The position numbers were made by a program, and so were the translations under genes. From Candidatus Latescibacterota bacterium (GTDB taxonomy: Bacteria > Latescibacterota > UBA2968 > UBA8231): a stretch of DNA of 64,000 nucleotides. Below the pieces are notes generated by a model, which had not been told where the DNA came from, did no database searches, and worked only from the letters and a program-made list of their open reading frames with translations. This document shows, in pieces, positions 47,015 to 64,000 of this stretch; positions within the stretch are counted from its first letter, which is position 1, and each line of letters begins with the position of its first letter. The stretch is taken from assembly GCA_965248355.1 (NCBI GenBank), contig OZ252098.1, positions 448,001 to 512,000 of the forward strand. Reading direction: 5' to 3'.

Positions 47015-47048
47015 ACCTCACAAGCAGACAGAACAGGAGTGAGCACTC

Positions 47049-47672: not shown

Positions 47673-47681
47673 AAAAAACCC

Positions 47682-47945: not shown

Positions 47946-49841
47946 ATGCGAGTCTCTCGGTTGCTCACCGCGGTGGGCCTGAGCGCCCTTCTCGCCGGTT
48001 CCGCCTTCGCCCAGACCACGAGATACGGGGACCCGGACTTCACTGTGGAGAGGGACTGGCGCAGCGGCATGCCCATCGTGCTGACCGCCAGCACCCAGGA
48101 CATGGGGTACGAGTTCGACGGCAATCCCCTGCAGATCCCCTTCACCATCGCCGGCACGCGGGCTACCGTCTACCTGGCGGTCTACACCAGCGGCGCCAAC
48201 CCGCAGTACGGCGGGGACCCCTTCGGAGTGGGCGGCATCGGCGGAGCCGCCCTGAGGACAGCGGGCATCGACACCCTGGTGTCCCTGTCCGCGGGGGAGT
48301 CCTTCAGCGCCGGATCCCACACCATCGCCTGGGACGGCAACGACTTCAACGGCAATGCCGTGGCCGCCGGCGACTACGACTTCTTCCTCATCGCCATCGA
48401 CGACGTCTCCAAGCCGACCTGGACCGGCCGCGGCTCCTATGTGTGGAGCAGCCGGGCCTACGACTTCCGCTTCGACCCACCCGTGGTGTGGAACACCAAC
48501 GGGCAGGGTTCCAATCCGGAGGACGGCACCAGCTACGAGCAGCGGCTCGAGCGGGGCCCCATGGGCGTCGATCTGATCGCCAACGGCGACGTGCCCACGG
48601 ACTTCCTGATGCCGTGGATGGTACCGCGGCTGAAGGAGCTCAACGCCGAGATGAACCCCGACCAGTGGGACCTGTCCTTCGTCGAGATCGACCCTCAGGA
48701 TCCGAACGTGGCGTACGTGGGCAACTACGGATGCTGCGCCGGCATGCCGGGCGGCTTCTGGAAGGTCAACATCGACCTCGACAACGTCTCCACGTCGCCG
48801 GAGGAGAGCTTTGCTGATCGCGGTCACATCGTCTGGGAGCAGCGCGTCGCCGACGCGGCGCTGATGGCCGAGCACACCAAGGAGTGGCTCAGCGACGACG
48901 GTCTGATCTACATGACCCACATGGACCGCGAGGAGCCCTTCACGCCCCAGATCGTGATGTTCGACCGGGCCACGGGCGACATCGCCAACGTCATGGACAT
49001 GACGGACCTGTACGTGCAGAACCGTCCGGACACCGACACGCCCGACGCCCCGTACGTGCCGGGGCCCTTCGGCATCGACGTGGACGACACGGGGATCTAC
49101 ACCAGCGCCTACTGGATGCAGGCGCCGCGGGCGTTCCCAACGAAGTACACCCAGGATGGCGACATCATCTGGCAGAACCAGAACGGCGACGGGTTCATCG
49201 ACCGCTACACGGGCGAAGAGGCCGAGGCCCTCGGTATCGTGGTCGTCGACCAGATGGTCAACACCGACATCAGCGTCACGCGCCACGGCATCTCGGTGGC
49301 CGGCGGCTACAACGACCCGGCCTGGGGCTACATCTTCGGTCCCGATGGTTCCGGTCTGCTGCGCTTGGATCTGCCTCACATGGGTCCCGATCTCGGTGGC
49401 GAGGTGGTCATCATCGACCGCGGCGGCGAGTACGACGGGTTGTATATCCCGGTTTGCTGCAACCGCGCCGTGCAGTGGCCCTTCGACATCGTCAAGGCCA
49501 GCATCTCCGAGGGCGTGACGATGGTGACCGAGGTCGACGCGGCCCTGCCCACGGCCTTTGAGGTGAGCGATGCGGCGCCCAATCCGTTCAACCCCGAGAC
49601 CAGCTTCCGGGTGTCGATTCCCGAGACTGGAAAGGACCTTCACGTCCACATCGCGGTATACAACACAGCCGGGCAGCAGGTGGCGGTACTGGCTGACGAG
49701 CCGATGCGTCCGGGAGTCTACCAGACCACCTGGGATGGCCGGGACATGAACGGTCGCAAGGTGTCGAGCGGGGTGTATCTCTACACCGTCCGCGCCGGAG
49801 CCGATTTTGTCGAGTCGAAACGGATGACCCTACTGAAGTAG
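47946..49841 (+). CDS. Secreted acidic protein with N- and C-terminal FlgD-Ig-like domains (T9SS type-A-like tail)
   Basis: RBS AGGAGG, signal peptide ending AFA-Q, GSHTIAWDGND.NG..V.AGDY, tail APNPFNPET...WDGRDMNG..VSSGVYLY...KRMTLLK. Confidence 0.85.
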   Translation: MRVSRLLTAVGLSALLAGSAFAQTTRYGDPDFTVERDWRSGMPIVLTASTQDMGYEFDGNPLQIPFTIAGTRATVYLAVYTSGANPQYGGDPFGVGGIGGAALRTAGIDTLVSLSAGESFSAGSHTIAWDGNDFNGNAVAAGDYDFFLIAIDDVSKPTWTGRGSYVWSSRAYDFRFDPPVVWNTNGQGSNPEDGTSYEQRLERGPMGVDLIANGDVPTDFLMPWMVPRLKELNAEMNPDQWDLSFVEIDPQDPNVAYVGNYGCCAGMPGGFWKVNIDLDNVSTSPEESFADRGHIVWEQRVADAALMAEHTKEWLSDDGLIYMTHMDREEPFTPQIVMFDRATGDIANVMDMTDLYVQNRPDTDTPDAPYVPGPFGIDVDDTGIYTSAYWMQAPRAFPTKYTQDGDIIWQNQNGDGFIDRYTGEEAEALGIVVVDQMVNTDISVTRHGISVAGGYNDPAWGYIFGPDGSGLLRLDLPHMGPDLGGEVVIIDRGGEYDGLYIPVCCNRAVQWPFDIVKASISEGVTMVTEVDAALPTAFEVSDAAPNPFNPETSFRVSIPETGKDLHVHIAVYNTAGQQVAVLADEPMRPGVYQTTWDGRDMNGRKVSSGVYLYTVRAGADFVESKRMTLLK

Positions 49842-49872
49842 CCCTGGTCCACAGGTGGTCCAGAGAAGAAAG

Positions 49873-49918
49873 GTCAGGTAGGTCCCACAGATGCGGTCTG
49901 GACCTACCTGACTTTTTT
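49873..49918 (+). terminator. Rho-independent terminator
   Basis: 13-bp perfect stem GTCAGGTAGGTCC/GGACCTACCTGAC followed by TTTTTT. Confidence 0.9.
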
Positions 49919-49998
49919 GCTTCCCCGGGCAACTCCGGGGGGCCAGGTGCGGGAGGACGATCCCGCTGCTTCGCAGATCATCAAAGGGGGAGGGGGAC

Positions 49999-52095
49999 GT
50001 GACCCCGAGCAGGACTATCGCCAGGATGCTCCGTGCATTGCCGGTGATGGCCGTGGCCTGTGGCAGCGCGGTCACCGCCGACGATCATCTCGTCGATCTG
50101 GACCGGTGGCGAACTGCGATTCACTACCGGAACACCTTCGCCGCCGCAGGGGCCCGCCCCGGCACGCTGTACGTCGCCGCCGTGGACAGTTTCCAGGTCT
50201 GGTTCAATGGGGCGCCGGTGGGCGAGGACGCCGCAGCCCGCCGCGCCGCCGCGATCCCGGTCGAGCTGGTCAACGGCGGTAACCACATCGCCGTCAGGGT
50301 TGTGAACCACGGCCTTGGAGAGGGACACGGCATGGTGGCTCTCGTCGCCGCAGATACGCTGGTGGGCGTACATACCACGACGGACCGCAGCATCCAAAGC
50401 TGGTACTGGAGCGCGGCGCCCCAGGATGGCCCCGACTGGACCACCGAAGAAGCGGAGGATCTCGAGTGGAGCCTGGTCCAGAATGGCACCTTCGACCTGG
50501 CAGGTGTGGAGGGCCTGCCCGCCGGGGCAAGGGCCGCCGTGGCCGGCTTCCCTGGCGGGATCGACGCCGGCCATCCCGAAGGAGGCCTGCGGCTGAAGCA
50601 GATCGACGGCCAGAACCTGGCCGTCGGCACGCCGGCCAACCGCATCGAGGTCGTCGATGGCGATCTGAACACCTCCTGGGATCCCCCGGTCAACGCCCTG
50701 AACTTCACCGCCAGCCTGGACCTGCAGGTGAGGCGCAACATCCACACCCTGCGCGCCCTGACGCGGCCTGGCCGCAGCGCACAGGACTTGGAGGCCAACT
50801 CCCTCCGCGGCTATTCGGTGCACATCAGCGACGATCAGATCCGCTGGTCGGAGGTCGGCGTGCTGCGGGGCATCACCGAGTTCGCCAGCACCGAGGTGAC
50901 GTTCCTGCCCACCTGGACCCGTTACATCCGCCTGGTCATCATGGAGATCAATGCCATCACCCAGCCCCGGGTGGCGGAAGTAGAGGTCTACGGATCCGGT
51001 CACACTGACCGCGGAGCCTTCGTCTCCGAGCCACTGGACTTCGGACTGACCGACACGGCCAGGAACTTCGGCCGCCTGTGGTGGCAGGCCGACGTGCCGG
51101 AACGCACCCAACTGTCGGTGCAATTCCGGAGCGGTCATACGCAGGAGGATTTCAGCGACGCGGAGGCGGGCTGGAGCCGGGCCTTCAGCGGCCACGGAGA
51201 CACCCTCTGGTTTCCCTCGGCGGAGCCGGCCCGCCTGCTGCAGTATCGTGTCAGCATGTCGACGCGCGACGACACCCGGACGCCCCTCTTTCGCCAGCTT
51301 GTCATCGAGAGTTCCCAGGATCTGGCCGTCACCGAGGCGCGGGCACACGTCAGTCCGAAGACGGCGCGTATCGGCGCAGATACGACGTTTCAGTATACCC
51401 TGGACCTGAGCTTTGGCGAAGGGGCCCAGGGCGTGGAGCGTCTGGCCATCGAGGTCCCGAGCCAGGCCGAGTTACTGACGGTTTCCGGCCTGGGCCCTCG
51501 ATCCGTGAGTACCTGGTCATCGACGCAGCGCAGCCTGCAACTGGAATTCGACGAGCCCTTGCGGGAGGATACCCAACTGGTCATCTCCTTCCGCACCAAG
51601 ACCTTCGCCACGGCCCACAGCTTCCGCTCCGCCCTGTTCTCACCGGGCTCGGAGAACCCCCTCAACCTGCAAGAGAACACGAGTGTCGACGAGGAGACGG
51701 GGGAGGCCCTCTCCTGGCACTTGCTGGCCATCCTGGCTCCCCAGGAGGTCCTGTCCCGCGTGCGGCCCAATCCCCCGGCCTTCTCCCCGAATGGCGACGG
51801 GATCAACGACTTCACGGTGATCGAGATGGTGCTGTCCAAGGTCGACATCCCCGCGCCGGTAAAGGTCGAGATCCATGACCTCTCGGGCCGCCGCGTAGCG
51901 AGTCTGGGCGAGGCGGGGCTGACGGCAGGCACCTACTTCTCGGATGCCTTCACCGGCCCCGGGAGTCCGGGGTACTGGGACGGACGCGACGGAGCGGGCG
52001 CGCTGGTGCCCCCGGGCCTGTATCTCTACCGCGTGGAGGTGCAGCTCGACACGGGTGACGAAGTCTCGGTGGGAACCGTGGCCGTCGCCTACTGA
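49999..52095 (+). CDS. Secreted protein with discoidin/F5-8-like domain and FlgD-Ig / gliding-motility-CTD-like tail
   Basis: Signal peptide, VVDGDLNTSW...LDL...Y.V.ISDD..RW...RYIRL...VAEVEVYG, tail PNPPAFSPNGDGINDF...WDGRD..G.LVPPGLYLY. Confidence 0.8.
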   Translation: MTPSRTIARMLRALPVMAVACGSAVTADDHLVDLDRWRTAIHYRNTFAAAGARPGTLYVAAVDSFQVWFNGAPVGEDAAARRAAAIPVELVNGGNHIAVRVVNHGLGEGHGMVALVAADTLVGVHTTTDRSIQSWYWSAAPQDGPDWTTEEAEDLEWSLVQNGTFDLAGVEGLPAGARAAVAGFPGGIDAGHPEGGLRLKQIDGQNLAVGTPANRIEVVDGDLNTSWDPPVNALNFTASLDLQVRRNIHTLRALTRPGRSAQDLEANSLRGYSVHISDDQIRWSEVGVLRGITEFASTEVTFLPTWTRYIRLVIMEINAITQPRVAEVEVYGSGHTDRGAFVSEPLDFGLTDTARNFGRLWWQADVPERTQLSVQFRSGHTQEDFSDAEAGWSRAFSGHGDTLWFPSAEPARLLQYRVSMSTRDDTRTPLFRQLVIESSQDLAVTEARAHVSPKTARIGADTTFQYTLDLSFGEGAQGVERLAIEVPSQAELLTVSGLGPRSVSTWSSTQRSLQLEFDEPLREDTQLVISFRTKTFATAHSFRSALFSPGSENPLNLQENTSVDEETGEALSWHLLAILAPQEVLSRVRPNPPAFSPNGDGINDFTVIEMVLSKVDIPAPVKVEIHDLSGRRVASLGEAGLTAGTYFSDAFTGPGSPGYWDGRDGAGALVPPGLYLYRVEVQLDTGDEVSVGTVAVAY

Positions 52096-52110
52096 TCGCC
52101 GGCGATTGGG

Positions 52111-54825
52111 ATGATCGGCATGACTCCCACGCCGGGCAGGGGGCGCTGCCGGCAGGCCGTGAGGGCCGGCCTGGGAGCCCTCATGGGGCTGCTGGCCGCA
52201 GCCGGCGATTCCGGGGGGCAGTCCCTCGACCGGGACATCGAGTGGGGATACCAGCAGTTCCTGACGCGCGAGTACCGGCCCTTCTGGGACGAGCGCTACG
52301 AGAATCTGTCCTTCCTCAGCTACCGGAACTTCCCCATTCGAGGGGAACAACCCAGGTACGATCCTTTCGGGCTGTACCTGCTGGACGGCAGCGAGATCCT
52401 GCGCATCGAGGAGTACCGGACCTTGGATCCGGGCAACAGTTCCCGGATCCCCACAGGCCCCAGTTTCGGACAGTTTCGGAACCTGGTGATCATGCGCGAC
52501 CACTACGGCAGCTGGTCGACGCGGCTGATGCTCGGACAGCGCCTGAAGGCACACCTGTCACCCCTGGCGCACGCCCGGGCCACCTTCGACGGCATCCGCT
52601 GGGACGCATCCTCTCATCGCAACATGATCTCCATCCTCACATCTCGCGTTTCCCACCGGCCCGCAACAGCTCCCCGGGCCACCCCTTTCGGAACCTACCT
52701 CTACGGGGGGCGATGGCAGAGCCAGCTGGGGGATATCGCCACCTTCGGGGCGACCTACGCCGACGTCCACCTGCGCGACACCTCGCAGAGAAAGGGGGAT
52801 TTTCGCGGTGTCTTTCCGAAGGATCTGAACCCGGCGGACTCCTACTTCGTGATCGTCAGTGACGACAGTCCCGAGGACGGTGTCGGGCCGCTGGTGTACG
52901 CCGTCGAGATGTGGTCTCAGGGGAGGCGGATGGAGGCCCAGGCCGAGGTGCGCTGGGTCCTGGGTGCGGCTCGCTCCGATGACGTGGCCCACATCCGCAG
53001 GAACGGGTCCTGGGCCGTCCTGTCCATGGAGGCCGACCGGTTGTTGAAGCCGGTACAGCCGGGAAGGGGACGTTTCTACAGCAGCGGCATCCCCGCTGTG
53101 GTCGATGGCCGGGGCACGGAGGTGGCCGGTACCGACCTGCTCGTAATTCGATTTGACGCGCCGCCCGAGACGGAGGATTTGCACTTCCGGGTGTTGGCTT
53201 CGGGTGACTACAACCTCGACCTGGGCGCCTCCTACGTGCTGGCGGGGGTGCCAGACCGATCCTGGTCCGACTGGCACAACGTGACCCGGGCCCCGGGCAA
53301 CGTGCGCGACGGATCCAACCTTGGCTGGGTGGATCTCTACTACGGCTTTCCCACGGGCCTGGCGAATCTCGGCGCCGATATCGAGATCGACCTGTGGGAT
53401 GTGGAGGTGAAAGGCGAGTACGTCCGCAACACCTCGAACTACCAGCTCCCGATATTCGGCGATCATTCCCGGCGGCGCACGGCGGCGTGGTACCTCAAGG
53501 GCGTGCGCCGCATGGGCGAAGGCTGGCGGCTGGGCGGCGAGATTCACCACATGCCGTCCGACTACGTCAACTCTCTGCCCATGTGGTCGCACAGCACCCG
53601 CAAGGTCCTGGCCTACCACATGGTAGAGGACAACGACGACCGCGACGAGTGGCCGGACGAGTACGAACACTGGGATCCCTTGCACCCCACCTACGTCACC
53701 AACAAGCGGAACAACGTCGACGTGGACGCGGCCCTGTCCGAGGTCAGCCGCGACTACGGCTTCGGGGGGGACTTCACCTACGGCGTGTACCCGGGTCTCG
53801 ACGCGGACCAGGACGGGGAGCCGGACACCAACGTCAACCGGAACGAGTTCGCCGACTACGTGGAGCCTTTCCTGATGTACTACGTGGAGCCGGACGAGTT
53901 CGTCTACGGAGATGACTTCAACAACAACGGCGTCGTGGACCCCCGCGAGAACGACAACCGCCCCGACTATCCCTATCCGCTCGATTCGGATGGCTACCAC
54001 GTCTTCGGCAGCTTCCTGGGCGGAGCGGGCCGGGTCCAGGCCCGCATCGGCCGTTACGAGTTGCACCAGGCGGCCGGCGACGGCCGTAACGAGGTCTCCT
54101 ATGCCGAGGCCCGTTACCGGTGGCGGAGTCCGCGCTCCGGCAGCCTCGATCTGCGTGGCCGCCTTCGACGGGTGAAGGACGACATCCCCGACCCCACTTA
54201 CATCACGATCGTGGAACCCCTGTCGGCGACCAACCGGGCCACGGCGATCCATCTCGACCGGTTGCTGACGCGGAACAGCCTGGTCAACACCGTCTACGCC
54301 GGGTCCGTGTACGATGGTGTAGCCGGCCTGACCGTGGTAAACGCCACCAAGCTGGACGTCAATCGCCGCCTGGATGACCGGCGAGGCATGGGAAAGACCA
54401 TCACGGACTGGACGTGGGTCAGCAAGGCGGACTACGCCTGGGGTTTCTCCGAGCACCTGACTTTCACTCCCATGGCCAAGCTGCTGGTGCAGCGCCTCGA
54501 CGGCCCCGGCGACCTGATCGCCGACCGGCACACGTGGGAGTGGTTTCCGATCCTGCGCCTCGACCTTTCCTTCAGCCAGTCCACGGGAATCCGCACCGGC
54601 GTGCAGGGGTTTCCCTTCAAGCACCTCTACCGCCACGCCGAATCCAGGTCCTCCAACTTCGACGCCCGCCACTACGTGGTCACCTTCCACACCCGGCGGA
54701 GTTACACCGGCTACAACGCCAGCATCAATGTCGGCTTGCGCCGCAGCCGTGAGGAACTGACAAACCTGCAGGCCGGGAGCGTGCGGGACTTCACCCAGTT
54801 CTTCGTCCAGGCGCGGATCCTCTGA
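52111..54825 (+). CDS. Large predicted outer-membrane protein, paralog 1 of 3 (unknown family)
   Basis: Signal peptide, alternating aromatic beta-strand pattern, acidic DNDD/DxDxDG/NNNG module, shares motifs with the next two genes. Confidence 0.75.
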   Translation: MIGMTPTPGRGRCRQAVRAGLGALMGLLAAAGDSGGQSLDRDIEWGYQQFLTREYRPFWDERYENLSFLSYRNFPIRGEQPRYDPFGLYLLDGSEILRIEEYRTLDPGNSSRIPTGPSFGQFRNLVIMRDHYGSWSTRLMLGQRLKAHLSPLAHARATFDGIRWDASSHRNMISILTSRVSHRPATAPRATPFGTYLYGGRWQSQLGDIATFGATYADVHLRDTSQRKGDFRGVFPKDLNPADSYFVIVSDDSPEDGVGPLVYAVEMWSQGRRMEAQAEVRWVLGAARSDDVAHIRRNGSWAVLSMEADRLLKPVQPGRGRFYSSGIPAVVDGRGTEVAGTDLLVIRFDAPPETEDLHFRVLASGDYNLDLGASYVLAGVPDRSWSDWHNVTRAPGNVRDGSNLGWVDLYYGFPTGLANLGADIEIDLWDVEVKGEYVRNTSNYQLPIFGDHSRRRTAAWYLKGVRRMGEGWRLGGEIHHMPSDYVNSLPMWSHSTRKVLAYHMVEDNDDRDEWPDEYEHWDPLHPTYVTNKRNNVDVDAALSEVSRDYGFGGDFTYGVYPGLDADQDGEPDTNVNRNEFADYVEPFLMYYVEPDEFVYGDDFNNNGVVDPRENDNRPDYPYPLDSDGYHVFGSFLGGAGRVQARIGRYELHQAAGDGRNEVSYAEARYRWRSPRSGSLDLRGRLRRVKDDIPDPTYITIVEPLSATNRATAIHLDRLLTRNSLVNTVYAGSVYDGVAGLTVVNATKLDVNRRLDDRRGMGKTITDWTWVSKADYAWGFSEHLTFTPMAKLLVQRLDGPGDLIADRHTWEWFPILRLDLSFSQSTGIRTGVQGFPFKHLYRHAESRSSNFDARHYVVTFHTRRSYTGYNASINVGLRRSREELTNLQAGSVRDFTQFFVQARIL

Positions 54826-57554
54826 TGGCCATCGGTCGGACAAAGCGCGCGGCCTCCCTCGTCCTGCTGCTGACGCTGGCGGCGGATCCGCCTTCCCCGG
54901 CGACGGCCCAGATGCTGTGGGACAACGAGGAGTGGCGCTACGTCAACTACGCTCGACAGGGATACCGGCCCTATACCGGCGGCGTCTGGTCCGAGTTGCG
55001 CAAGCCCGCTTTCGACGAGCTCGGCAACTACCTGATGCAGGGGGTCCAGGTCTTTCGCACCGAGGAAGCGCGTGAGAACGATCCCCTGGCGGGCAGCCTG
55101 GTGGACGAGTCGGTGGAGTACCGCATCAATCTCAACCGCCTCGTCATCGGACACGACTCCTACGGGGACCGGTCGAGCCGGCTCATGGTGGGGGACTTCA
55201 TCCGCACGAAGTTCAGCGCCTTGACCCTCGACCTGGCCTCCCTGAACGGCGTGCGTTGGGATATCGACCTGAACCCCACCCAGGTCACCCTCGTGTCGTC
55301 GCGTATGGACTGGCCCATCTTTCCCTCGGGGAGGCTGCTGGCGCGGACCGACCGCGACAACGAGGCGCACCGGGAGCGTCGTTGGTCGACCTACCTGCTC
55401 GGCGGCCACGTGGGGCGCCGATTCGGCGCCTTGAACCTGGGCTTCAACTACGTGAACCTGCACCGCACCGACAGCCTGGTCGACTGGGGGGACAACAACA
55501 TCCGCGGCGTGCTCCCCTCGGCCGTCAACCGCCCGCCGGCCTGGATTGCCGTGCGGGTCAATGACGGATCCGACGAGGACGAGCAGGGGGCCCGGGTCCA
55601 TGAGATGCGGATCAAGAACCCCGAATTGGCCCACGTGGTGGCGGATGTGACCCTGCACGACACGGAGGTGATAGACCAGTCCTATCCGAATGGCGACCAG
55701 TTCTTTCCCCAGGGACGCCGTATCCCCCCGTACGTGCAGTTCCTGAAGGGAGAGTTCCCGCCCGCCCAGCGCCGCGCGGAAGGGTATCACCAGGCCGACG
55801 GGACGAAGTATCTCATCTTCTGGTTCCAGATCCCCCACGAGCTCCGGGACACGATCTCGGAGGTCGAATTCGAAGCCCTGGTATCCGACGACTACGACAT
55901 CGAGCTGTCGGAGGTCTTCCTCCCCATCAGCCGCGAGACCTCGAGCAACCCGTCCATCAGCGGCGAGCGGGCGACCTACTACTACTCCGTGGCTGGATCC
56001 AGGGGCAACGTCAGGGATCAGTCGAATCTGGAGTGGATCGAGTTCTCCTACGGCCGCCAGACAGGACGCACCACCGCCAGCGTGCGCATGGAGTACGAGC
56101 GTCCCGGCTTCGAGCTCACGGCGGAGCTGGCCGGCACGTGGGACTTCCGCCAGCATTCGTCCACTGCGGGCCGAAAGGCGTGGCAGGCGACCCGTGCCCA
56201 GGGCTGGTTCGCCAACTTCGAGAAGCACTTGGCGGGCCTGGTGGTCGGCGGCGAGCTGTTCCGCATGGACCCGCTGTACAGCACCCTGGTGTCGGCGGAG
56301 GACCCCGAGTACTCGAGCTACTCCGACGATCTCAACAGCCCCTTCGGGATCCCTCACTCCTTTCCCATCGACCGCAACAACACGGTCGATATGGATACCG
56401 TCGACGACAACGACGACAAGGACCTGGCTCCCGACTTCCACTTCCTTCCCCACTTGCAGGATGCCAGCGTGCTTCCGGGCCGGGATCTCGACCTCGACGG
56501 TCGAATCGACGACAACCAGAATGGCAACGGCATCCCCGACTACCTGGAGCCGTTCTTCCTCTATCACTCCGATCCCGCCGAGTTCGTATACGGCGACGAT
56601 CTCAACAACAACAACATCATCGACCACCGCGAAGACGACCGTGCGCCCGACTATCCGTACGACGTCGATCTGGAGGGCTACCACCTCTTCGTCGATCTCG
56701 ATCCGCTTCGTGACCTGCGCATGCGTCTTGGGCGCTTCCGCACCGAGGAGATCTGGGGCGGAGGCGGCAACGACGTGAACTATGCCCGGGTGGACTACGA
56801 GCGCACCTTCTTTCCCTTTGGCAAGGTGTTGCTCACGAATTACCTGAAGAAGGTGCGCGACGACATCGAGAACGATGCCCCCTTCCTGTCCGTGTTCGCA
56901 CCGAACCAGCTGCCGCTGCAGCCGGGGACCGGGGTCGGCTCCTTGCTGAACGTGCAGGTGGCGGACGAGTTGTGGATGCGCGACAGCCTGGTGAACACCA
57001 GCTACCTCGATGCCACCCTCTTCCGCTTCGCCAACCTCAATATCAACAACCGCCTCAAATACCAGTCGAACTGGCAGCGCGAGACCCCCTTCCAGCCCGC
57101 CAACCGGCTGGCGGAGTGGTCCTGGGTCCTGCGGGCGGAATACGCCTGGCGCCTGCGGGGCCTCACGGTCCGGCCGCGTCTGAAATACATGGTCTACCGG
57201 CGATCGGACCGGGAGGCGCGGCGCTACCCGGTGTCCGAGCGCTATTTCTATCCCATGCTCATGGCCAGCTACGCTCTCACGGACCAGACGACGATCTCCG
57301 GCGGCGCCCAGGGGATCCCCTTCCTGGAGGCCCGCTTCCGTGACCTCACCCATCCGGATACGGACTGGAACTCGCGGGACTACATCATCTCCCTCACCAA
57401 CCGCACCACCTACCAGGGCCAGCAGCTGAGCCTCAACATGGGCTGGCACCTGCAGGTGGTCGAGTTCCAGGAGAAGGCGCGGCGTGACGAGGGCGTGGAC
57501 CGCTCCTTGTTCTTCCTGCGCCTGATTCTCGGCGCCGAGCCTTTCAAGGGGTGA
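54825..57554 (+). CDS. Large predicted outer-membrane protein, paralog 2 of 3 (unknown family)
   Basis: TGATG coupling, signal peptide ending ATA-Q, same motif order as paralogs 1 and 3. Confidence 0.75.
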   Translation: MAIGRTKRAASLVLLLTLAADPPSPATAQMLWDNEEWRYVNYARQGYRPYTGGVWSELRKPAFDELGNYLMQGVQVFRTEEARENDPLAGSLVDESVEYRINLNRLVIGHDSYGDRSSRLMVGDFIRTKFSALTLDLASLNGVRWDIDLNPTQVTLVSSRMDWPIFPSGRLLARTDRDNEAHRERRWSTYLLGGHVGRRFGALNLGFNYVNLHRTDSLVDWGDNNIRGVLPSAVNRPPAWIAVRVNDGSDEDEQGARVHEMRIKNPELAHVVADVTLHDTEVIDQSYPNGDQFFPQGRRIPPYVQFLKGEFPPAQRRAEGYHQADGTKYLIFWFQIPHELRDTISEVEFEALVSDDYDIELSEVFLPISRETSSNPSISGERATYYYSVAGSRGNVRDQSNLEWIEFSYGRQTGRTTASVRMEYERPGFELTAELAGTWDFRQHSSTAGRKAWQATRAQGWFANFEKHLAGLVVGGELFRMDPLYSTLVSAEDPEYSSYSDDLNSPFGIPHSFPIDRNNTVDMDTVDDNDDKDLAPDFHFLPHLQDASVLPGRDLDLDGRIDDNQNGNGIPDYLEPFFLYHSDPAEFVYGDDLNNNNIIDHREDDRAPDYPYDVDLEGYHLFVDLDPLRDLRMRLGRFRTEEIWGGGGNDVNYARVDYERTFFPFGKVLLTNYLKKVRDDIENDAPFLSVFAPNQLPLQPGTGVGSLLNVQVADELWMRDSLVNTSYLDATLFRFANLNINNRLKYQSNWQRETPFQPANRLAEWSWVLRAEYAWRLRGLTVRPRLKYMVYRRSDREARRYPVSERYFYPMLMASYALTDQTTISGGAQGIPFLEARFRDLTHPDTDWNSRDYIISLTNRTTYQGQQLSLNMGWHLQVVEFQEKARRDEGVDRSLFFLRLILGAEPFKG

Positions 57555-60421
57555 GTCCGGTGAGGCGGTTCCACATTCTGGCCCTGCTCCTGGCAGCGAC
57601 GGCCGTCTGGGGGCAGCGGGACCAACCGGGGGGTGACACGCCCTGGCTGGACAAGGAGGAGGACCCGCCGGATCGACTGGGCGTCACCCGCGTGGTGCCC
57701 GGCGAGGAGTTCCTGTACCGGGCCTGGGCGGACTACGAGAACTACGGCATCCGCGACTTCCAGCTTCCAGAGACCTCCTGGCAGGCCCGCCGCAACCACT
57801 ACGGCCCCATGGGGAACTTCCTCCTCAACGGCTACGATTCCTACCGGTGGCTGGAAACGCGGGCCAACTCGAGCCGCGGCGACGCGCCCAACAGCACCTT
57901 GTCGAAGTCGAACATGGGCATCTTCCAGCAGAACCTGGTGGCCCGGGAATCGCACAAGGGCTGGGCGACGGCGCTGATCCTGGGCGAGGAGATGCGCACG
58001 AAGTTCACCCCTCTCACGCTGAGCCTGGCGGGCATCAACGGCGTGCGCCTCGACGCGCAGCGCCAGTTCCCGCAGTGGTCGACCCGGTTCACGGCCCTGG
58101 CCTCGCGCTGGAGCGCCCCCGTGTGGACGGGGAACGTTACGGGCGAGCAGCAGGACACGCGCCGTACCCTCTCCATGCTCATGGCCGCCCACTCCGACGT
58201 CCAGGTAGGCCGCCTCGTCACCGGCGGCACGGTGATCAACTATCACAACGCCGACGCATACCAGGAGTCCTTCAACCTCAAAGGCCAGCTCCAGTCCGGC
58301 CAGGTCAAGCCGAGCTTCGTCGTGGTCAAGTTCTCCGACGACTCGCCTTTCGACGAGGAGGGCGGCGCCGTGATCAATGACGTCTTCCTCGTCGTCGACG
58401 GCGTCGAGCGCCACGACCTGCAGCCGACCTACGTGCGCGTCAACTCCAGGAATCCCACGGCACTCGGGCGCTTCAACCGGCTCACGGGTCAGTTCAACCG
58501 CACCATTTACAACGACGGCGGGATCCGGTTCGCCGACTACTTCTATCGCCTCGACCAACTCTCCGGGCAGGAGGTGAGCAACGTCAACCTCGAGGAGTTG
58601 GAGCGCTTCATCCAGGTCGTGCCGCCCACGGCCCGCCTGGAGGCGAGCGGCGACTGGGTCATCCTGGCCTGGTTCGATCTCCGGGCCGAGCCGTCGGTGC
58701 GCTCCGTCGAGGTGCGGGCCCTGGTGGGAAACGACTACCGCATCGACGTGGTCGGGCTCTTCGACGACGATCCGCGGCAACGGACCTACGAGGGCCGCTG
58801 GTCGGCGGGAGGCATCGAGGGGCAGGCGAGGGCCAAGGGCAACGTGCAGGACCTGTCCAACCTCGGCTGGGTCAGCATCGACGCCGGAGCCTGGACGGGA
58901 CGCTACGTGCTCGGCTGGAACGGCTCCTGGGAAGGACGGGATGGCCGGATCCGCTGGGAGTACGCCCGCAGCCTCGACTACTTCCGGTATCCCGACGGAC
59001 CTCCGGGACACCGCCAGCCCAAGGAGATCACGGGTGTCCGGATCTGGAAAGGGGAGGTGAGCAGGCACACGGAGCACGCCTACTACGTGACCGCCGAGTG
59101 GGGGCGCGGTCTGTGGGAAGCCGGTGCCGAGGCGTTCTCGCTGCCCGACCGCTTCAACCGCCACCTGCCCACCACCTCCACCTTCGCCCTGGCCCGTACC
59201 GATGGCTTCGTGGAGGACAACGACGACAACGACAGCTGGCCCGACGCCGGCCCGGGAGACCGGCCCCGGCACTTCGGAGACAAGTCCTCCGACCCGGACG
59301 GGGTCTTTCCCGGCAAGGACGAGGACAACGACGGCATTCCCGACACCAACCGCAATCAGAACGACCTGCCCGACTACGAGGAAGCCTTCCTTCTGTTCTA
59401 CGTGGAACCCGACGAGTACGTCTACGGCCGCGACTGGAACCACAACGGCGTCGCGGATGAGCGCGAGGACGACCTCGAGCCCGACTTCCCGTACCAGCTC
59501 GGTCAGGCGGGCGCCCACGTGTACGGCCGCCTGAACCTGAGGAGCCGCTGGCTTCCCGGGGTGTTGACCCTCGGCCTCGGCCGTCTCGACGCCGAGGGCA
59601 TCGCCAACGGAGGACGAAACGAGAGCGACTACGGTCAGCTCATCTGGAGGGCCGGGGTCCCCGGCGTGGCACAGGTTCGCTTTGAGACCCTTCTCGAACG
59701 GGTCCACGACGACGTGGCGAATCCGTACTACCGCCTCGACGAGATCCTCGGCGAGCCCCTTGGCAGCGGCGGCTTCACCTTTGCCGGCGCCACGGCCTAC
59801 CACCGCGTCGTCGTGCGCGATCCCCTGGAGTGGCGCAACAGCACCGAGCGCCAGCACTACCTGCAGTGCGAGTTGCAGCCCCTGCCCGGGCTGAGGCTGT
59901 GGGGCAACCTGCGCCATTCCCTCAACGAGCAGAAGGGCGGCGTCCTCATCGAGGGCCGCGACCTGGGGCCGGACGAGATCAGCCTGTGGACCTCGGTCAT
60001 CAAGGCCGAGTACGTCTGGGAGCCGACCCGAAGCTGGCAGATTTTCGGCCAGGCCAAGGGCCTGCTCCTGCGCGAGGACCGGGTCAGTGTGGCCACGGAC
60101 CTGCAGGACCAGCGCACCTTCGTGCCCATCGTCAAGGGCCGCTATGCCCTGACGCCGCGCACCGACCTGTGGCTCGGGGTGCAGGGCCTGCCCGGGCTGC
60201 CCCTCGTGGTGAGGGACCGGGCGGACGGGTTCAACTCCCGCGAGGAACGGGTCTGGGTGGCGCAGCTGACGAACAAGTCTCCGTACCTCGGCTACGACAC
60301 CGCCATGACCCTCGGCGTCAAGAGCGTCGATCGCGACTACCAGGATCCGACGCGGGAGCTGGAGGACATGCAGGTCCTCTCGATCTTCCTGCGCATCCTG
60401 CTGGGCTACACCATCGACTGA
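57551..60421 (+). CDS. Large predicted outer-membrane protein, paralog 3 of 3 (unknown family)
   Basis: GTGA coupling, signal peptide ending VWG-Q, same motif order as paralogs 1 and 2. Confidence 0.75.
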   Translation: MSPVRRFHILALLLAATAVWGQRDQPGGDTPWLDKEEDPPDRLGVTRVVPGEEFLYRAWADYENYGIRDFQLPETSWQARRNHYGPMGNFLLNGYDSYRWLETRANSSRGDAPNSTLSKSNMGIFQQNLVARESHKGWATALILGEEMRTKFTPLTLSLAGINGVRLDAQRQFPQWSTRFTALASRWSAPVWTGNVTGEQQDTRRTLSMLMAAHSDVQVGRLVTGGTVINYHNADAYQESFNLKGQLQSGQVKPSFVVVKFSDDSPFDEEGGAVINDVFLVVDGVERHDLQPTYVRVNSRNPTALGRFNRLTGQFNRTIYNDGGIRFADYFYRLDQLSGQEVSNVNLEELERFIQVVPPTARLEASGDWVILAWFDLRAEPSVRSVEVRALVGNDYRIDVVGLFDDDPRQRTYEGRWSAGGIEGQARAKGNVQDLSNLGWVSIDAGAWTGRYVLGWNGSWEGRDGRIRWEYARSLDYFRYPDGPPGHRQPKEITGVRIWKGEVSRHTEHAYYVTAEWGRGLWEAGAEAFSLPDRFNRHLPTTSTFALARTDGFVEDNDDNDSWPDAGPGDRPRHFGDKSSDPDGVFPGKDEDNDGIPDTNRNQNDLPDYEEAFLLFYVEPDEYVYGRDWNHNGVADEREDDLEPDFPYQLGQAGAHVYGRLNLRSRWLPGVLTLGLGRLDAEGIANGGRNESDYGQLIWRAGVPGVAQVRFETLLERVHDDVANPYYRLDEILGEPLGSGGFTFAGATAYHRVVVRDPLEWRNSTERQHYLQCELQPLPGLRLWGNLRHSLNEQKGGVLIEGRDLGPDEISLWTSVIKAEYVWEPTRSWQIFGQAKGLLLREDRVSVATDLQDQRTFVPIVKGRYALTPRTDLWLGVQGLPGLPLVVRDRADGFNSREERVWVAQLTNKSPYLGYDTAMTLGVKSVDRDYQDPTRELEDMQVLSIFLRILLGYTID

Positions 60422-60429
60422 GAAGGATC

Positions 60430-63400
60430 ATGTTTGCCTGGATCACATTGGCTCTGATCGTCGCCTTCTACGGGGCCACTCGCAACGTGCCCACGGCCGA
60501 CGAGATCAAGGCCTCCTTCGACCACGGCCAGAAGTTCTACTCCTCCGGCGCCTATGATCAGGCCATCGGCGAGTACCGGTCGATCCTCAAGAGCGGCAGC
60601 TCGCTTTTGAGGATGGAGGGCGTCACCGTCTCGGTGGGCGACATCGAGGCGCCCCTCCAGGAGGTGGCGACCTACCAGATCGGCAACGCCCATCTCAAGA
60701 TGGCCGAGGAAGCCCTCGAGCGACGCTCCCGGGCCCGTGACCTGGAGACGCAGCAGGACCTGCAGGCCCGGGCCGGAGATCTCCTGGCCGAGGCCATCGA
60801 CTACTTCGAGATCACCGAGGAGCGGGCCACGGTGGACGTCCTGCGGGCCCTGGCCCGCAGCCAGATCATCACCTGCCACTACAAGCGCGGGGACTATGAA
60901 GGCACCATCGATGCGGCCCTGACCCTGATAGAACATTACCCCGCGAGCAAGTACGTGGTGCAGGCCATGTACGACATCGGCTGGGCGTACTTCGACATGG
61001 AGGAGTACGCCTCCAGCGCCGGCGCCTTCGAGAGGCTCGTGAAGCGCTTTCCCTCCGGGTACCGAGGAAACCGGGCGCTGTTCCAGATCGGCGAGTCGTA
61101 CTTCCGGCTGGAGCGCTACCGTGACGCCATCCCGCAGTTCCGGCGCCTTGTCGAGTCGCAGCGAATCGGCCAGATGTCGCAGCGCGAGTTGCTGGTCATG
61201 AAGCGCGAGAAGCTCGCCGGCCTGGTGGACGAGACGGCCCTGGAGCTGGCCGCCAAGGCGATGATCCGCCTCGGCGAGTGTTACGAGCGAATCGGCGATT
61301 ACCAGGAGGCGAGCCGGGCCTTCGAGACGGTGGCGACGCAGTTCCAGGAGGAGCAGCGGCTGGCCGAGGAAGCCTACCTCCGCCACGCGGATATGCACTA
61401 CAGCCGCGGGGACTTCGAAGCCTGTATCGCCGTATACCGGAAGGCCATCGAGAACGACCCCGACATGGGGGACAAGGCCCGACTGCAGCTGCTGATGGCG
61501 AACCGTTACTTCGAGACCGAGCACTATCCGGAGGCGGCCCTGGAGTACACCATCTACCGGGATACGTACGCCATGTGGGCGGCTGCCGCCGGCCTGCCCG
61601 TGGAAGGAGTGGGCCTGCAGATCGCGCGGGCCTGGTTCCGGCGGGCGGCCCTGGTGGAATCGGCCCGGCGCCTGGACCCGTACCGGCGCGCCGAGGCGGA
61701 ACTGAAGACCACCCTGCGCGCCTATCGGGGCTCGGCGTACGATGTGGAGTTGCGCTTCAATCTCGGCCTGGCCCTGGAGCGGCAGGAGGACGAGGCCAAG
61801 ATCACCGAGGCCCTCGCCCTCTACCTCGACCTCATCGAGGATCCCCAGTCCGGCGGCTACCGCCAGAGCGCGCGCTTCCAGGCCGCCCGGATCCTGCACG
61901 ACCGCCAGGATTTCGGGGCCGCCGCCGACCAGTACCGCCGGGTCATCCTGGAGATGGCGGACCGTGCCGAGGTGCAGATCGCCCGTTTCGAGCTCGCCAA
62001 TGTCCTGCGCGACGCCGGGCGGCTCGACGAGGCCGTCGCCGCATACCGCGAGGTCGATCCCGAAGCCGAGTTGTTCGCACGCTCACGCCTCGAGGCCGGG
62101 CAGTTCCTGCTCTCCGCCGGCCGCACCGGCGAGGCGATCCCCATCCTCGAGGAAGGCCTGGCGCCGCAAGGAGAGGCCGACCGGGAGACCCTGGCCCTGC
62201 TGCACTACCTGCTTGGCGCCGCCCATTCAGGCCTGGAGCAGCACGAGGCATCCGTGCCCTGGTTCTCCATGGCCATCGAAGGGGGCGTGGAGACCGTTCT
62301 GGAGCAGGCCGTCTACGGACGTGGACTGGCCAATTTCCGGATGGGCCGCTTACAGGAGGCGGCTGCAGACCTCGATCGCCCGTGGCAGCAGACGGAGTTC
62401 CTGAGCTCGGCTTCCAGACTCCTGGCGGCCTGCTACACGCAGCTCGATCGGACCGACGAGGCCCTGGAGGTATACCAGAGACTCGCTTTGGAGACGGAGA
62501 CGGTCCTGGAGGAGGCGGAGTTCCGTCTGGCACACGCCGAGATCCGCTATCGGCAGGGCGGCTACGAGGAGGTGGTCGAGGCTTGCCGCGCCATCGAAGC
62601 CCTGGACGTGACCGAGACGGAGTTGCCGAGGTCGCGGCCGTACTACGTGCTCGAGAAGTCCTACTACCTGAAGGCCGACGCCTCCCTGCGGCTGAATCGA
62701 TTGACCGACGCGGCCGGGGCGGCGGCCAAGGGCTGGCAGCGGTTTCCAGGCGGGTATTTCGCGGCCGATTTCCTCTTTCTGCGGGGCCTGGCCGACCTGC
62801 AACTCGATGCCAACGAATCCTCCGTGGCCTCCTTCACCCGGATGCTGCAGCGCTTTCCCGACCACGGCAATGCCCCGTACGCCCTCTACTACCGAGCCTA
62901 CGGATACTTCAACCAGACCATGTTCCGGGAGGCGGAAGCGGACTTCCACCGCCTGCTGCGCGAGCACCCGGAGATCGATGTCGCAGCCGACGCCGCCTTC
63001 CGCACGGCCGAGTGCGTGTACAACCTCGGCCGCTTCGCCGAGGCCGCAGGCGCCTACCAGGCCTTTCACGACCTCTTCCCGTCGACGCCGCTGGCCGAGG
63101 AAGCCCTTTACAACGTCGCCTGGTGTCATCTGAACAAGCGCGGCGAACTGGGACGGCACGAGGCCGAGGCACGGCGCAGCCTGGAAACCTACCTGGAGGC
63201 CTATCCAGGGGGACGTTGGGCGTCCACGGCGCGGTACACCCTGGCGGAGATTCGCTACAACGCCGGGGAGTACGACGCGGCCTACGGGATGTTCGTGGAC
63301 ATCGAGGAGGAGTTCCCCGGCACGGAAGCGGCACGCCGCGCCGCCGGGGCTCTCCCGGACCTCAGGGAAGCCGTGGCCTACAAGGCCTACGAAGCGGCCA

Positions 63401-63681
63401 TGGAGGAATTCAACTTGGCCGTGGAGAGCGAGAGCGACGACGACGTGCGGGCGGTGATCCCCCGGCTCGAGGTGATCTGGGAGGAGTATCCCGGAACCTC
63501 CAGTGGCATCGGCGCACGTGTGAACATGGCGGTTGCATACCAGAAGCTGAGGCGGTGGAGACAGGCGGTGGAAATCTTCGACGAGATCGTCGCCGCCTCC
63601 GAGGGCGGCGCTCCGGTGGAACCCAATGTGCTGGCCTTCTGCCAGCGCCGCAGCGGCACGATCAGGAGGAAGCACCTGTGA
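60430..63681 (+). CDS. 1083-aa tetratricopeptide repeat protein with N-terminal membrane anchor/signal
   Basis: RBS AAGGA, MFAWITLALIVAFYG, many BamD/CpoB-like TPR units (AMYDIGWAYF, ALFQIGESYF, ALYYRAYGYF, ALYNVAWC, ..YP.S/..FP.). Confidence 0.88.
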   Translation: MFAWITLALIVAFYGATRNVPTADEIKASFDHGQKFYSSGAYDQAIGEYRSILKSGSSLLRMEGVTVSVGDIEAPLQEVATYQIGNAHLKMAEEALERRSRARDLETQQDLQARAGDLLAEAIDYFEITEERATVDVLRALARSQIITCHYKRGDYEGTIDAALTLIEHYPASKYVVQAMYDIGWAYFDMEEYASSAGAFERLVKRFPSGYRGNRALFQIGESYFRLERYRDAIPQFRRLVESQRIGQMSQRELLVMKREKLAGLVDETALELAAKAMIRLGECYERIGDYQEASRAFETVATQFQEEQRLAEEAYLRHADMHYSRGDFEACIAVYRKAIENDPDMGDKARLQLLMANRYFETEHYPEAALEYTIYRDTYAMWAAAAGLPVEGVGLQIARAWFRRAALVESARRLDPYRRAEAELKTTLRAYRGSAYDVELRFNLGLALERQEDEAKITEALALYLDLIEDPQSGGYRQSARFQAARILHDRQDFGAAADQYRRVILEMADRAEVQIARFELANVLRDAGRLDEAVAAYREVDPEAELFARSRLEAGQFLLSAGRTGEAIPILEEGLAPQGEADRETLALLHYLLGAAHSGLEQHEASVPWFSMAIEGGVETVLEQAVYGRGLANFRMGRLQEAAADLDRPWQQTEFLSSASRLLAACYTQLDRTDEALEVYQRLALETETVLEEAEFRLAHAEIRYRQGGYEEVVEACRAIEALDVTETELPRSRPYYVLEKSYYLKADASLRLNRLTDAAGAAAKGWQRFPGGYFAADFLFLRGLADLQLDANESSVASFTRMLQRFPDHGNAPYALYYRAYGYFNQTMFREAEADFHRLLREHPEIDVAADAAFRTAECVYNLGRFAEAAGAYQAFHDLFPSTPLAEEALYNVAWCHLNKRGELGRHEAEARRSLETYLEAYPGGRWASTARYTLAEIRYNAGEYDAAYGMFVDIEEEFPGTEAARRAAGALPDLREAVAYKAYEAAMEEFNLAVESESDDDVRAVIPRLEVIWEEYPGTSSGIGARVNMAVAYQKLRRWRQAVEIFDEIVAASEGGAPVEPNVLAFCQRRSGTIRRKHL

Positions 63682-64000
63682 TGGACCGTCTATCGGTTCT
63701 TCGCTACGGACGCAGGCTCCTCTACCTGGGCCTGGTGGCGTCGGTGGCTCTCCACCTGGCGGTCGGTGCGGTCTGGCTCCTGCCGGAGGACGAGGAGGAG
63801 GAGCGGGTTGTGGCCCGTTTCGAATTCGAGGAACAGGACACGCCGCTCTTCGTGCCGGCGCCGCGGCTGGCGCGCGAGTTCGCCTTCCGCAAGCAACCGA
63901 TCCCCCAGGGCACGCCCATCGTGCGGTCCAGCGGCGACGAGACGTCGACCACCGTGGGCGGCGCCGTGGGCCGCGTGCGCATGTCACCCACCTCGGCCAC
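63681..64000 (+). CDS. TonB/TolA-like membrane-anchored protein (3'-truncated; absent from the ORF track)
   Basis: TGATG coupling to the TPR gene. MDRLSVLRYGRRLLYLGLVASVALHLAVGAVWLLPEDEEEE... has a TM helix with the SxxxH motif. No stop before the window edge. Confidence 0.6.
   Translation, partial: MDRLSVLRYGRRLLYLGLVASVALHLAVGAVWLLPEDEEEERVVARFEFEEQDTPLFVPAPRLAREFAFRKQPIPQGTPIVRSSGDETSTTVGGAVGRVRMSPTSA

Follow-up and report, generated by a model that had tools for sequence, protein, structure and literature searches.

In the Agl-Glt machinery of Myxococcus, the TonB-like proteins GltG/GltJ and tetratricopeptide repeat (TPR) proteins couple a TolQR-type motor to barrels in the outer membrane and to an adhesin. 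The type IX secretion system (T9SS) pairs surface proteins that bear a C-terminal domain (CTD) with barrels of their own (SprB-SprF/PorP, PorU-PorV, PorZ-PorQ), and in Flavobacterium the barrel paired with SprB is SprF. According to the available text of Luciano et al., the Agl-Glt 'core complex' consists of aglR, Q, S and gltD, E, G, C, also occurs in a Fibrobacter with several copies per genome, has no known function outside the Myxococcales and is on its own unlikely to drive motility (PMC3169522). In Fibrobacter succinogenes, the cluster FSU_2396-2403 is described as encoding OmpA, TPR, TPR, ExbB, ExbD, ExbD and TonB; the levels of its proteins increase on cellulose, and a complex of its TPR and OmpA proteins with cellulases has been reported (text portion of PMC6851124). 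A further group has been described by Williams-Jones et al. (2025), whose available text reports vWA-headed force transducers with an SHLS/His helix, a disordered linker and no known function, encoded beside TPR, one tolQ-like and two tolR-like genes (PMC12204202). Here, we compare these systems with an operon of eight genes (g1-g8) of a Candidatus Latescibacterota bacterium, which lies at the end of a 64,000-nucleotide stretch of its genome (G000:C1:448001-512000; in the following, the window).

The operon g1-g8 belongs to a conserved module that spans the envelope in Latescibacterota and related phyla, and is one of its five old sister copies in this genome. The cassette is built largely from unannotated families and its kind is that of a motor-coupled envelope machine. 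We are confident that it encodes an envelope machine coupled to the proton-motive force and composed of the parts described below. A motor-coupled envelope module, with import as the favoured direction, appears reasonably probable as the best explanation overall. In the literature, we found no account of the cassette, of its barrel family or of a role for DUF4159, although supplementary tables may hold more.

All eight genes lie on the + strand. The first 16 kb of the operon correspond to window positions 47946-64000, and g7 and g8 extend past the window end. Since the next gene after g8 is a convergent ASPIC/UnbV-TPR gene, the operon has eight genes. Seven co-oriented genes had been described in an earlier reading of the window made from its letters alone (the sequence-only reading), and inspection of the open reading frames (ORFs) places these genes and their features at the positions claimed. 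The tight junctions are likewise as described: g2 and g3 are separated by 15 nt and g5 and g6 by 8 nt, g3/g4 and g6/g7 overlap in TGATG and g4/g5 overlap in GTGA. The gap between g1 and g2 measures 157 nt and the one between g7 and g8 16 nt. The G+C content at third codon positions of the operon ORFs (0.81-0.91) matches the coding pattern of the genome, which is a single contig of 5.50 Mb (95.7% complete, 4.18% contamination, ~65-74% G+C).

A tblastn search with the eight proteins recovers the same gene order five times in the genome, at C1 151-169 kb (cassette 1), 496-514 kb (cassette 2, the window's cassette), 550-573 kb (cassette 3), 1576-1592 kb (cassette 4) and 1956-1974 kb (cassette 5). 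In cassette 3, the DUF4159 gene precedes the TPR gene and motor genes are found in between. Protein identity among the five cassettes is 29-67%. Apart from the five, the genome contains eight or more reduced loci, most of which comprise one or more g2-like genes and one or two barrel genes; a lipoprotein resembling g8, a TPR protein or a DUF4159 protein is additionally encoded in some of them. A profile search of six-frame ORFs yields 29 matches, corresponding to ~27 barrel genes in the genome. In a FastTree phylogeny of 46 rows (4 of the 29 ORF matches omitted as fragments; 11 of 75 loci from other genomes sampled), the g3-, g4- and g5-type barrels form three clades, P1, P2 and P3, with a support of 100 each. 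Each clade holds exactly one gene per cassette together with orthologues from other metagenome-assembled genomes (MAGs), which argues that the barrel triplication preceded the multiplication of the cassettes. Each cassette copy has apparently been kept in several genomes since. The nine single barrels of the genome form a separate clade. The P3 clade holds one extra copy at 147.5 kb (C1:147502-150474, - strand), which is divergent to cassette 1 and, with branch lengths of 0.049 and 0.085, a recent duplicate of the g5-type gene of this cassette. The possible hetero-oligomer of paralogous barrels that the sequence-only reading had considered fits this tree.

The barrel family extends beyond this genome. 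A word-indexed search gives 46 clusters, none of them named, and an exhaustive search gives 923 cluster representatives at E <= 0.001. Within the phylum, 94 of 151 genomes sampled carry it, among them 63/63 of the window's own taxonomic family; two further families of the class have it in 0/30 and 0/19 genomes. With representatives in several phyla of the Bacteroidota-related group, the system is not lineage-specific as had been supposed. Synteny was assessed in 75 fetched loci, whose record titles are mostly Candidatus Latescibacterota, the others being Gemmatimonadota, Ignavibacteria, Bacteroidota, KSB1, Kryptoniota and one Myxococcales. A g2-like gene directly precedes a barrel gene in 46 of the 75 loci, and all three barrel classes are found in 20. 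TPR genes occur in 37 loci, DUF4159 genes in 38, g8 in 40 and ExbB in 20. The full core of g2, barrel, TPR, DUF4159 and g8 is present in 31/75 loci, 16 of which also contain ExbB in the stretch fetched, while 23/75 hold barrel genes only, with or without g1-like genes. The expectation that the gene order is conserved in relatives thus holds, and on these counts g2 appears as the most constant neighbor of barrel genes.

MAGs labeled Ignavibacteria, Bacteroidota, KSB1 and Kryptoniota carry a one-barrel form. Its typical order is g2, barrel, TPR, DUF4159, g8, DUF4159, DUF5683, and the ExbB and ExbD genes either precede g2 or stand between TPR and DUF4159. Two loci stand out by their labels. The barrels of cassette 3 are near-identical to those of L063, a MAG titled Gemmatimonadaceae (branch lengths 0.03-0.07), whereas the closest records overall are titled Latescibacterota. 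L024, from a MAG titled Myxococcales, holds a complete cassette together with a motor. Both cases may reflect unreliable MAG phylum labels or transfer of cassettes.

The central part of the operon is formed by the three barrel paralogs g3 (P1; 52111-54825; 904 amino acids), g4 (P2; 54825-57554; 909 amino acids) and g5 (P3; 57551-60421; 956 amino acids). At the sequence level, g3 and g5 are 29 and 27% identical to g4, respectively. All three lack Pfam and NCBIfam matches at E <= 0.01, and the barrel profile finds nothing among the sequences of solved structures (best E 0.27, a DegP-like protease). Pfam SlpA_C weakly matches 5 of 39 family members (best 4.4e-5), and none of g3, g4 and g5 at E <= 0.01. 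Hence, these searches reveal no full-length match to a characterized family, in agreement with the sequence-only reading. A structural model of g4, built on 39 relatives, consists almost entirely of beta structure, with some two dozen long strands and a domain inserted near residues 240-400 (predicted local distance difference test, pLDDT, 78.3; predicted template modeling score, pTM, 0.79). A conserved Asp-rich segment near 525-615 (D528...Y612) is poorly ordered, and residues 19-57 are partly conserved but modeled with a pLDDT <50.

Searches with the g4 model by Foldseek and by the Foldseek-independent aligner VIA return outer-membrane barrels only. The best Foldseek match is SlpA (8ae1_A, 6.5e-9) and the best VIA match is 7zgx_A (Z 14.1; root-mean-square deviation, rmsd, 5.5; 341 residues aligned), with porins and Omp85 proteins next after SlpA at Z 11-13. 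LptD, MtrB, ushers, TonB-dependent transporters and SprA are found among the further matches, and all Foldseek TM-scores are low (0.15-0.25). The model thus predicts that g4, the sole paralog modeled, is a large outer-membrane beta-barrel and not a soluble protein, as had been proposed for the paralogs. By sequence, g3 and g5 belong to the same new barrel family, which is distantly like Deinococcus SlpA, and their fold is deduced from the g4 model. The best fold match is the barrel of the Deinococcus radiodurans SlpA/S-layer deinoxanthin-binding complex (8ae1, 7zgx, 8agd; PF21620). SlpA is trimeric according to its PDB title, which makes the trio of paralogs suggestive. In contrast to SlpA, the cassette barrels have no SLH match, and the g4 model lacks a long helix after the signal peptide, i.e., a coiled-coil N-terminus. 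The Asp-rich segment and the inserted domain of g4 would be further differences from SlpA. A relation to TonB-dependent transporters is not apparent. Plug (PF07715) does not match g3, g4 or g5 at E <= 0.01, and this model matches 21 times elsewhere in the genome and 0 times in the cassettes. The 22-strand barrel family TonB_dep_Rec (PF00593) has no match in the three proteins either, and TonB-dependent transporter chains are generic barrel matches of the model (TM 0.20-0.22). Furthermore, Pfam and NCBIfam scans of g1-g8 give no SusC-type (Plug) or SusD match.

The barrel genes are preceded by two genes for secreted proteins with C-terminal tails, which the sequence-only reading had recognized as FlgD-Ig/T9SS-like. 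The first of them, g1 (47946-49841; 631 amino acids), has a signal peptide, an FlgD-Ig-like stretch at ~residues 116-150, a core without assignment and a tail that matches FlgD_ig (3.6e-15, residues 566-617, 56.1 bits; cut-off 27) and CHU_C (27.6 bits; cut-off 27). The score against Por_Secre_tail/TIGR04183 (21.8 bits) is under the cut-off of 23. Paralogs of g1 occupy the same position in all four sister cassettes. The product of g2 (49999-52095; 698 amino acids) contains a discoidin domain (F5_F8_type_C, 1.3e-8, residues 218-316, 35.5 bits; cut-off 28.2) and a CHU_C/FlgD_ig tail, for which CHU_C at 594-685 scores slightly under the cut-off (26.4 bits; cut-off 27). Both tails are C-terminal sorting domains of the kind found in T9SS cargo. 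Among ten g2-like paralogs scanned, the discoidin domain was found in six and the tail in nine. A sequence search of solved structures with g1 and g2 gives only weak FlgD or chitobiase-type rows.

A T9SS translocon component is encoded in the same genome. The SprA model scores 605.8 bits summed over three pieces (cut-off 200) in a 2067-residue frame at C1:427238-431878, ~16 kb 5' of the window's first base. PorV-like matches are all under the cut-off. The GldM and PorP/SprF models have no match in the genome, but these controls were also silent in 14/14 known genomes and are hence uninformative. With SprA and the sub-cut-off PorV-like proteins, the tails of g1 and g2 have a plausible route to the surface. 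As in the T9SS pairs, the gene of the tailed protein stands directly before a barrel gene (46/75 loci) and SprA is encoded in the genome, whereas the cassette barrels with ~900 residues are much larger than the ~300-400 residues of the T9SS partners. A complex prediction of g4 (29-909) with the g2 tail (588-698) gave a score of 0.00, which speaks neither for nor against binding. In other Latescibacterota loci (L054, L062, L065, L066, L077, L081, L087), g5-like single or tandem barrels adjoin g1-like genes and g4-like single barrels adjoin g2-like genes. This hints that each tailed protein may have its own barrel class, with the best-hit class assignment of distant single barrels being uncertain.

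Downstream of the barrels, g6 (60430-63681) encodes a TPR protein of 1083 amino acids with an N-terminal hydrophobic anchor or signal. It matches 20 TPR-type Pfam families as well as the YbgF/CpoB-type repeats of TIGR02795 (153.7 bits; cut-off 90.1) and the BamD-type repeats of TIGR03302 (130.3 bits; cut-off 81.4) and is presumed to be a periplasmic scaffold. The following gene, g7 (63681-64000 in the window with its first 106 codons, up to window-equivalent position 64877; 398 amino acids), starts with MDRLSVLRYGRRLLYLGLVASVALHLAVGAVWLL, in which S-x3-H lies within a hydrophobic helix. This helix (LVASVALHLAV) is an N-terminal S-x3-H membrane helix of the TonB type and is followed by a linker of ~150 residues and a globular head. 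The head is DUF4159 (3e-31, residues 200-379), the sole Pfam family in g7; the Pfam scan finds no TonB_C (PF03544), and no vWA family matches at E <= 0.01. The sole solved relative of the head is an uncharacterized protein (PDB 4i66, 4.4e-7). Of the TonB-like anchor that had been assigned to g7, the TonB-like layout therefore stands, but the head is not TonB_C and the SxxxH motif is kept in 18 of 53 relatives.

A domain resembling the TonB CTD is instead found on g8 (window-equivalent 64894-66192, outside the window), a lipoprotein of 432 amino acids without a membrane helix, so that its placement on g7 has to be corrected. The protein carries a lipoprotein signal whose lipobox Cys is invariant in 28 aligned sequences, and it consists of a beta-sandwich and the TonB-CTD-like domain. 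This domain matches NF033768 (AgmX/PglI tail, 'myxo_SS_tail') with 49.3 bits (cut-off 40) and tonB_Cterm with 7.3e-4, while Pfam TonB_C (17.5 bits) stays under its cut-off of 24.6. It superposes on TonB CTD chains with Z 6.4-7.4 and an rmsd of 2.3-2.8 over 78-90 residues and thus has the fold of the TonB CTD. The tail domain matches GltG (3.1e-7), while the full-length gliding_GltG model reaches 29.3 bits (cut-off 650). Matches of the beta-sandwich are weak and generic (YcdA Z 8.6, YjhA Z 7.6), with no Foldseek match at E <= 0.001. In the g8 of the Ignavibacteria-type one-barrel loci, a C-terminal DUF4159-like domain replaces the TonB-like one. Since the head differs among loci (TonB-like, DUF4159-like or none), the C-terminal head of the lipoprotein appears to be exchangeable. 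A role of g8 as inner-membrane TonB is ruled out by the lipobox, and the protein has no SxxxH helix.

The motif helix, linker and non-TonB head of g7, with TPR, tolQ and two tolR neighbors, resemble the vWA-headed transducers. These differ in their head from g7 with its DUF4159, and their description mentions no giant barrels or T9SS cargo in the text available (PMC12204202). The word DUF4159 is not found in the main text of that paper.

Seven MotA_ExbB loci are present in the genome. One adjoins the sole Pfam TonB_C (PF03544) gene of the genome and would represent an ordinary Ton system, which can serve the 21 Plug matches. The other six go with the five cassettes and a reduced locus, at distances of no more than 14 kb. 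Cassette 3 and the reduced locus at 219-240 kb contain theirs, cassettes 4 and 5 are directly followed by one each, another comes 7 kb after cassette 1, and the sixth is near the window's cassette. According to Pfam, cassette 5 has the set ExbB-ExbD-ExbD and cassette 3 has ExbB and one confirmed ExbD with one further unscanned ORF between. DUF5683, DUF4340 and small extra genes also accompany the motor genes in the cassettes scanned, with DUF4340 in cassette 3. Two of the extra genes were considered as hidden TonB-like proteins and rejected: the product of the 307-residue gene of cassette 5 has a signal peptide and no SxxxH helix, and that of the 125-residue gene of cassette 3 is a small lipoprotein.

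For the window's cassette, the sequence-only reading had suggested looking for exbB/exbD beyond position 64000. They do not follow directly but lie 14 kb downstream on the minus strand, as one ExbB (264 amino acids) and two ExbD genes. The motor proteins score best against TolQ (147.9 bits; cut-off 221) and TolR (83.2 bits; cut-off 127.3). The ExbBs of cassettes 3-5 are 66-71% identical to each other, and the ExbB near the window's cassette is 55% identical over 253 residues to the one 7 kb from cassette 1. Identity to canonical ExbB is 36-39% for the ExbBs near cassettes 1 and 2 and 31-39% for any cassette-linked or reduced-locus ExbB. As the ExbB identities follow the cassette tree, indicating co-duplication, there is good reason to infer that the distant motor genes are those of the window's cassette. 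The suggestion that an ExbBD-type energizer is part of the system is borne out by the motor genes inside or directly after cassettes 3, 4 and 5 and in 20/75 loci. Between the window's cassette and its motor genes, two adjacent paralogous genes on the - strand encode proteins of 790 and 754 amino acids with repeated Gly/Asp-rich motifs (L003:9633-12005 and L003:11882-14146; window-equivalent 72633-77146), and the 790-residue protein has no Pfam match.

Taken together, the cassette shares with the Ton system the MotA/ExbB and ExbD proteins encoded with it, the S-x3-H helix, linker and globular head of g7, the TonB-CTD-like fold on g8 and large outer-membrane barrels as partners. It differs in that its barrels lack Plug and TonB_dep_Rec, the head of g7 is DUF4159 and the TonB-like domain sits on a lipoprotein, and in having two ExbD per ExbB, a 1083-residue TPR protein and T9SS-tailed proteins. 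With the Agl-Glt core, it shares one TolQ-like and two TolR-like proteins, large TPR proteins, a TonB-like protein, a lipoprotein and the occurrence in several copies; moreover, the g8 tail falls into the AgmX/PglI domain family. The TolQ-like gene with two TolR-like genes is found in the cluster at cassette 5, the window's set being 14 kb off. However, there is no GltG orthologue, as only the C-terminal tail matches, and the available text of the Agl-Glt and Fibrobacter accounts mentions neither a trio of giant barrels nor a DUF4159 protein or a discoidin protein with a T9SS tail.

Based on these parts, a mechanism can be outlined. An inner-membrane motor of the 5:2 type would use the proton gradient and pull via g7, perhaps also g8, on the barrels or their partners, while the TPR protein g6 would serve as a scaffold in the periplasm. 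Every cassette keeps a fixed set of three barrels, which would act jointly, perhaps as a heterotrimer by analogy with the SlpA homotrimer. The force would be exerted on these barrels and on surface proteins attached to them. The discoidin protein g2, delivered by the T9SS and held at a barrel, might capture a large ligand such as a glycan, which the energized barrels would admit much as Sus-like loci do with TonB-dependent transporters. Import is favored as direction because of the discoidin domains, the many diverged copies as in nutrient loci and the ABC importer, CBM9, DUF4838 and sulfatase neighbors. With the Sus-like loci of Bacteroidota, the cassettes have in common the many diverged copies, a large barrel with surface ligand binders, an ExbBD-type motor and, at some copies, carbohydrate-related neighbors. 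They differ in lacking a SusC/SusD match and enzymes or regulators inside and in having motor genes of their own each. That the cassette is an importer is nevertheless a tentative proposal to which we give somewhat less than an even chance, direction and cargo both being deduced. Still more doubtful is the wider proposal of a further class of 5:2-motor machine beside Ton, Tol-Pal, Agl-Glt and T9SS/gliding. In such a machine, an SlpA-like barrel heterotrimer with a discoidin cap would be opened by a DUF4159 transducer on a TPR scaffold, and it would have multiplied in Latescibacterota as substrate-specific polymer importers, a Sus counterpart from unrelated parts.

Several observations weigh against the motor-coupled module and its use for import. 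The motor genes of the window's cassette are 14 kb off on the opposite strand, and the seven genes in between look unrelated. Just 18 of 53 relatives of g7 retain SxxxH, and in cassettes 3-5, which have motor genes inside or directly downstream, the helix of g7 has no His. The TonB-CTD-like domain of g8 occurs at only two places in the genome, i.e., in two of the five cassettes, and hence is not part of the core; its position on a lipoprotein is unlike the way TonB works. On the side of the barrels, the fold was modeled for one of three paralogs (g4), Pfam scans find no plug domain, no TonB box was recognized, and the likeness to SlpA is partial, with TM 0.19-0.23 and an alignment over 341 of the 909 residues. 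The cassette itself contains no glycoside hydrolase or regulator, and the carbohydrate neighbors are not conserved, with the ABC importer in 0/75, the CBM9 protein in 0/75 and DUF4838 in 1/75 loci of other genomes. Finally, the evidence that joins the parts into one machine comes from gene neighborhoods and one fold model.

As an alternative to import, the motor might move or tension the T9SS-delivered proteins g1 and g2 through the barrels, in a machine for surface adhesion or motility. The part list mirrors the Glt core complex as given in the available text (PMC3169522), the g8 tail exceeds the AgmX/PglI cut-off and matches GltG (3.1e-7), and the CHU_C tail of g2 (type B-like) is encoded next to its own barrel. 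DUF4340, which we take to accompany gliding-associated ABC genes, occurs in cassette 3. However, the full-length GltG score of 29.3 bits is far from the cut-off of 650, no NCBIfam Glt TPR model matched g6 and the AgmX-type tail is restricted to two of five cassettes. Five cassettes plus reduced loci with ~27 barrel genes would moreover be many for a motility apparatus, and the core complex alone, as quoted above from Luciano et al., is unlikely to drive motility. We therefore consider a surface-adhesin or motility machine improbable, although it fares best among the alternatives.

The scores of the motor proteins, which are best against TolQ and TolR, together with the YbgF/CpoB-type repeats of g6 above cut-off, would also suit a Tol-Pal-like tether that stabilizes the envelope, in which the SlpA-like barrels would be plentiful structural proteins of the outer membrane. 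According to PDB titles, SlpA as the nearest solved fold belongs to a cell-envelope complex and is located in the outer membrane, and the available text of Williams-Jones et al. expects other stabilizing systems in Bacteroidetes without recognizable Tol-Pal (PMC12204202). Yet the TolQ and TolR scores (147.9 and 83.2 bits) are under the cut-offs (221 and 127.3 bits), and a Pfam scan of g1-g8 found no domain that binds the wall, be it SLH, OmpA-like or another. Five diverged copies with secreted discoidin proteins of their own would be unexpected for a housekeeping function, and two families of the same class do without the barrel family (0/30 and 0/19 genomes). We therefore regard a tether as having a low probability.

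We regard an export or surface-assembly route as having the same low probability as the tether. Here, the barrels would be exit or anchoring pores for g1, g2 or a polymer, energized from the inner membrane. The exporters LptD, ushers and SprA are among the Foldseek matches of g4, a flippase-type Polysacc_synt gene follows cassette 5, and the pairing of g2 with a barrel is the most constant feature of the loci (46/75). In contrast, g1 and g2 already have T9SS-type tails in a genome with SprA, the fold matches of g4 are generic (TM 0.15-0.25) and the flippase neighbor is found at one cassette only. That the genes are merely neighboring envelope genes sharing an operon is very improbable: the evidence for a linkage of the parts is genomic and the neighbors outside the core vary, but the order is kept in five cassettes of only 29-67% identity and in MAGs of several phylum labels, the junctions overlap or measure 8-16 nt, and the motor paralogs were duplicated in step with the cassettes.

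The surroundings of the cassettes differ from copy to copy. In cassette 1, a CUT1-type ATP-binding cassette (ABC) importer (SBP_bac_1/8 and two BPD_transp_1; C1:173356-176588) lies between g8 and ExbB-ExbD-ExbD; as a conserved partner, an ABC importer is ruled out (0/75 loci). At other copies, CBM9, DUF4838 and sulfatase genes are found as neighbors. The sulfatase gene of the window (Sulfatase 5.5e-46; 43088-45025, - strand) lies upstream of the operon and is also found in three orthologous loci (L014, L016, L017) with 65-75% identity. Directly upstream of the operon, a TPR gene encodes 519 amino acids (45297-46856, + strand).

A sigma-70-like promoter-like site (TTGACT-18 nt-CATAAT, 47682-47711, + strand) lies 235 nt 5' of g1 and agrees with the consensus at 10 of 12 positions. 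One such site was found where 0.2 are expected from shuffles, the match being to a consensus that may not be the promoter type of the phylum. In four RNA libraries from two sponge metatranscriptome studies, contigs of at least 95% likeness cover 23-27 of 30 bins of window 46800-64000, and single contigs span the g2/g3, g3/g4, g4/g5 and g6/g7 junctions. RNA libraries may contain DNA, so that the contigs prove neither transcription nor its level; bins without contig cover (e.g., 59428-60575 in some runs) are uninformative. In two libraries of one study (X19/X20), the g1 contig (47433-49872) has a word depth of 136/156 and the g2-g3 contig (49944-54296) one of 18/13, a measure unfit for ranking genes. 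The contig depth and the 157-nt gap after g1 raise the possibility that g1 may have a stronger transcript of its own. The contigs of these libraries lack 27 nt at window position 47841 and show small indels at 47602-47672, 5' of g1, which probably represents strain variation in an untranslated leader.

If the motor-coupled module exists as proposed, a sizeable group of little-known phyla, with the MAG labels Latescibacterota, some Gemmatimonadota, Ignavibacteria, KSB1 and Kryptoniota, would couple the proton gradient of the inner membrane to the outer membrane by an unstudied route. The coupling would use a new family of giant barrels with 923 cluster representatives and a non-TonB transducer head. 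As the five cassettes alone take up ~90 kb of the genome and 6/7 motor loci go with cassettes or a reduced locus, the cassettes would then probably be central to feeding or surface holding of these sponge-associated bacteria. DUF4159, DUF5683 and the AgmX-type tail would gain a concrete, testable role. Moreover, the one-barrel and three-barrel forms would represent a natural series for the change from a homo- to a hetero-oligomeric barrel.

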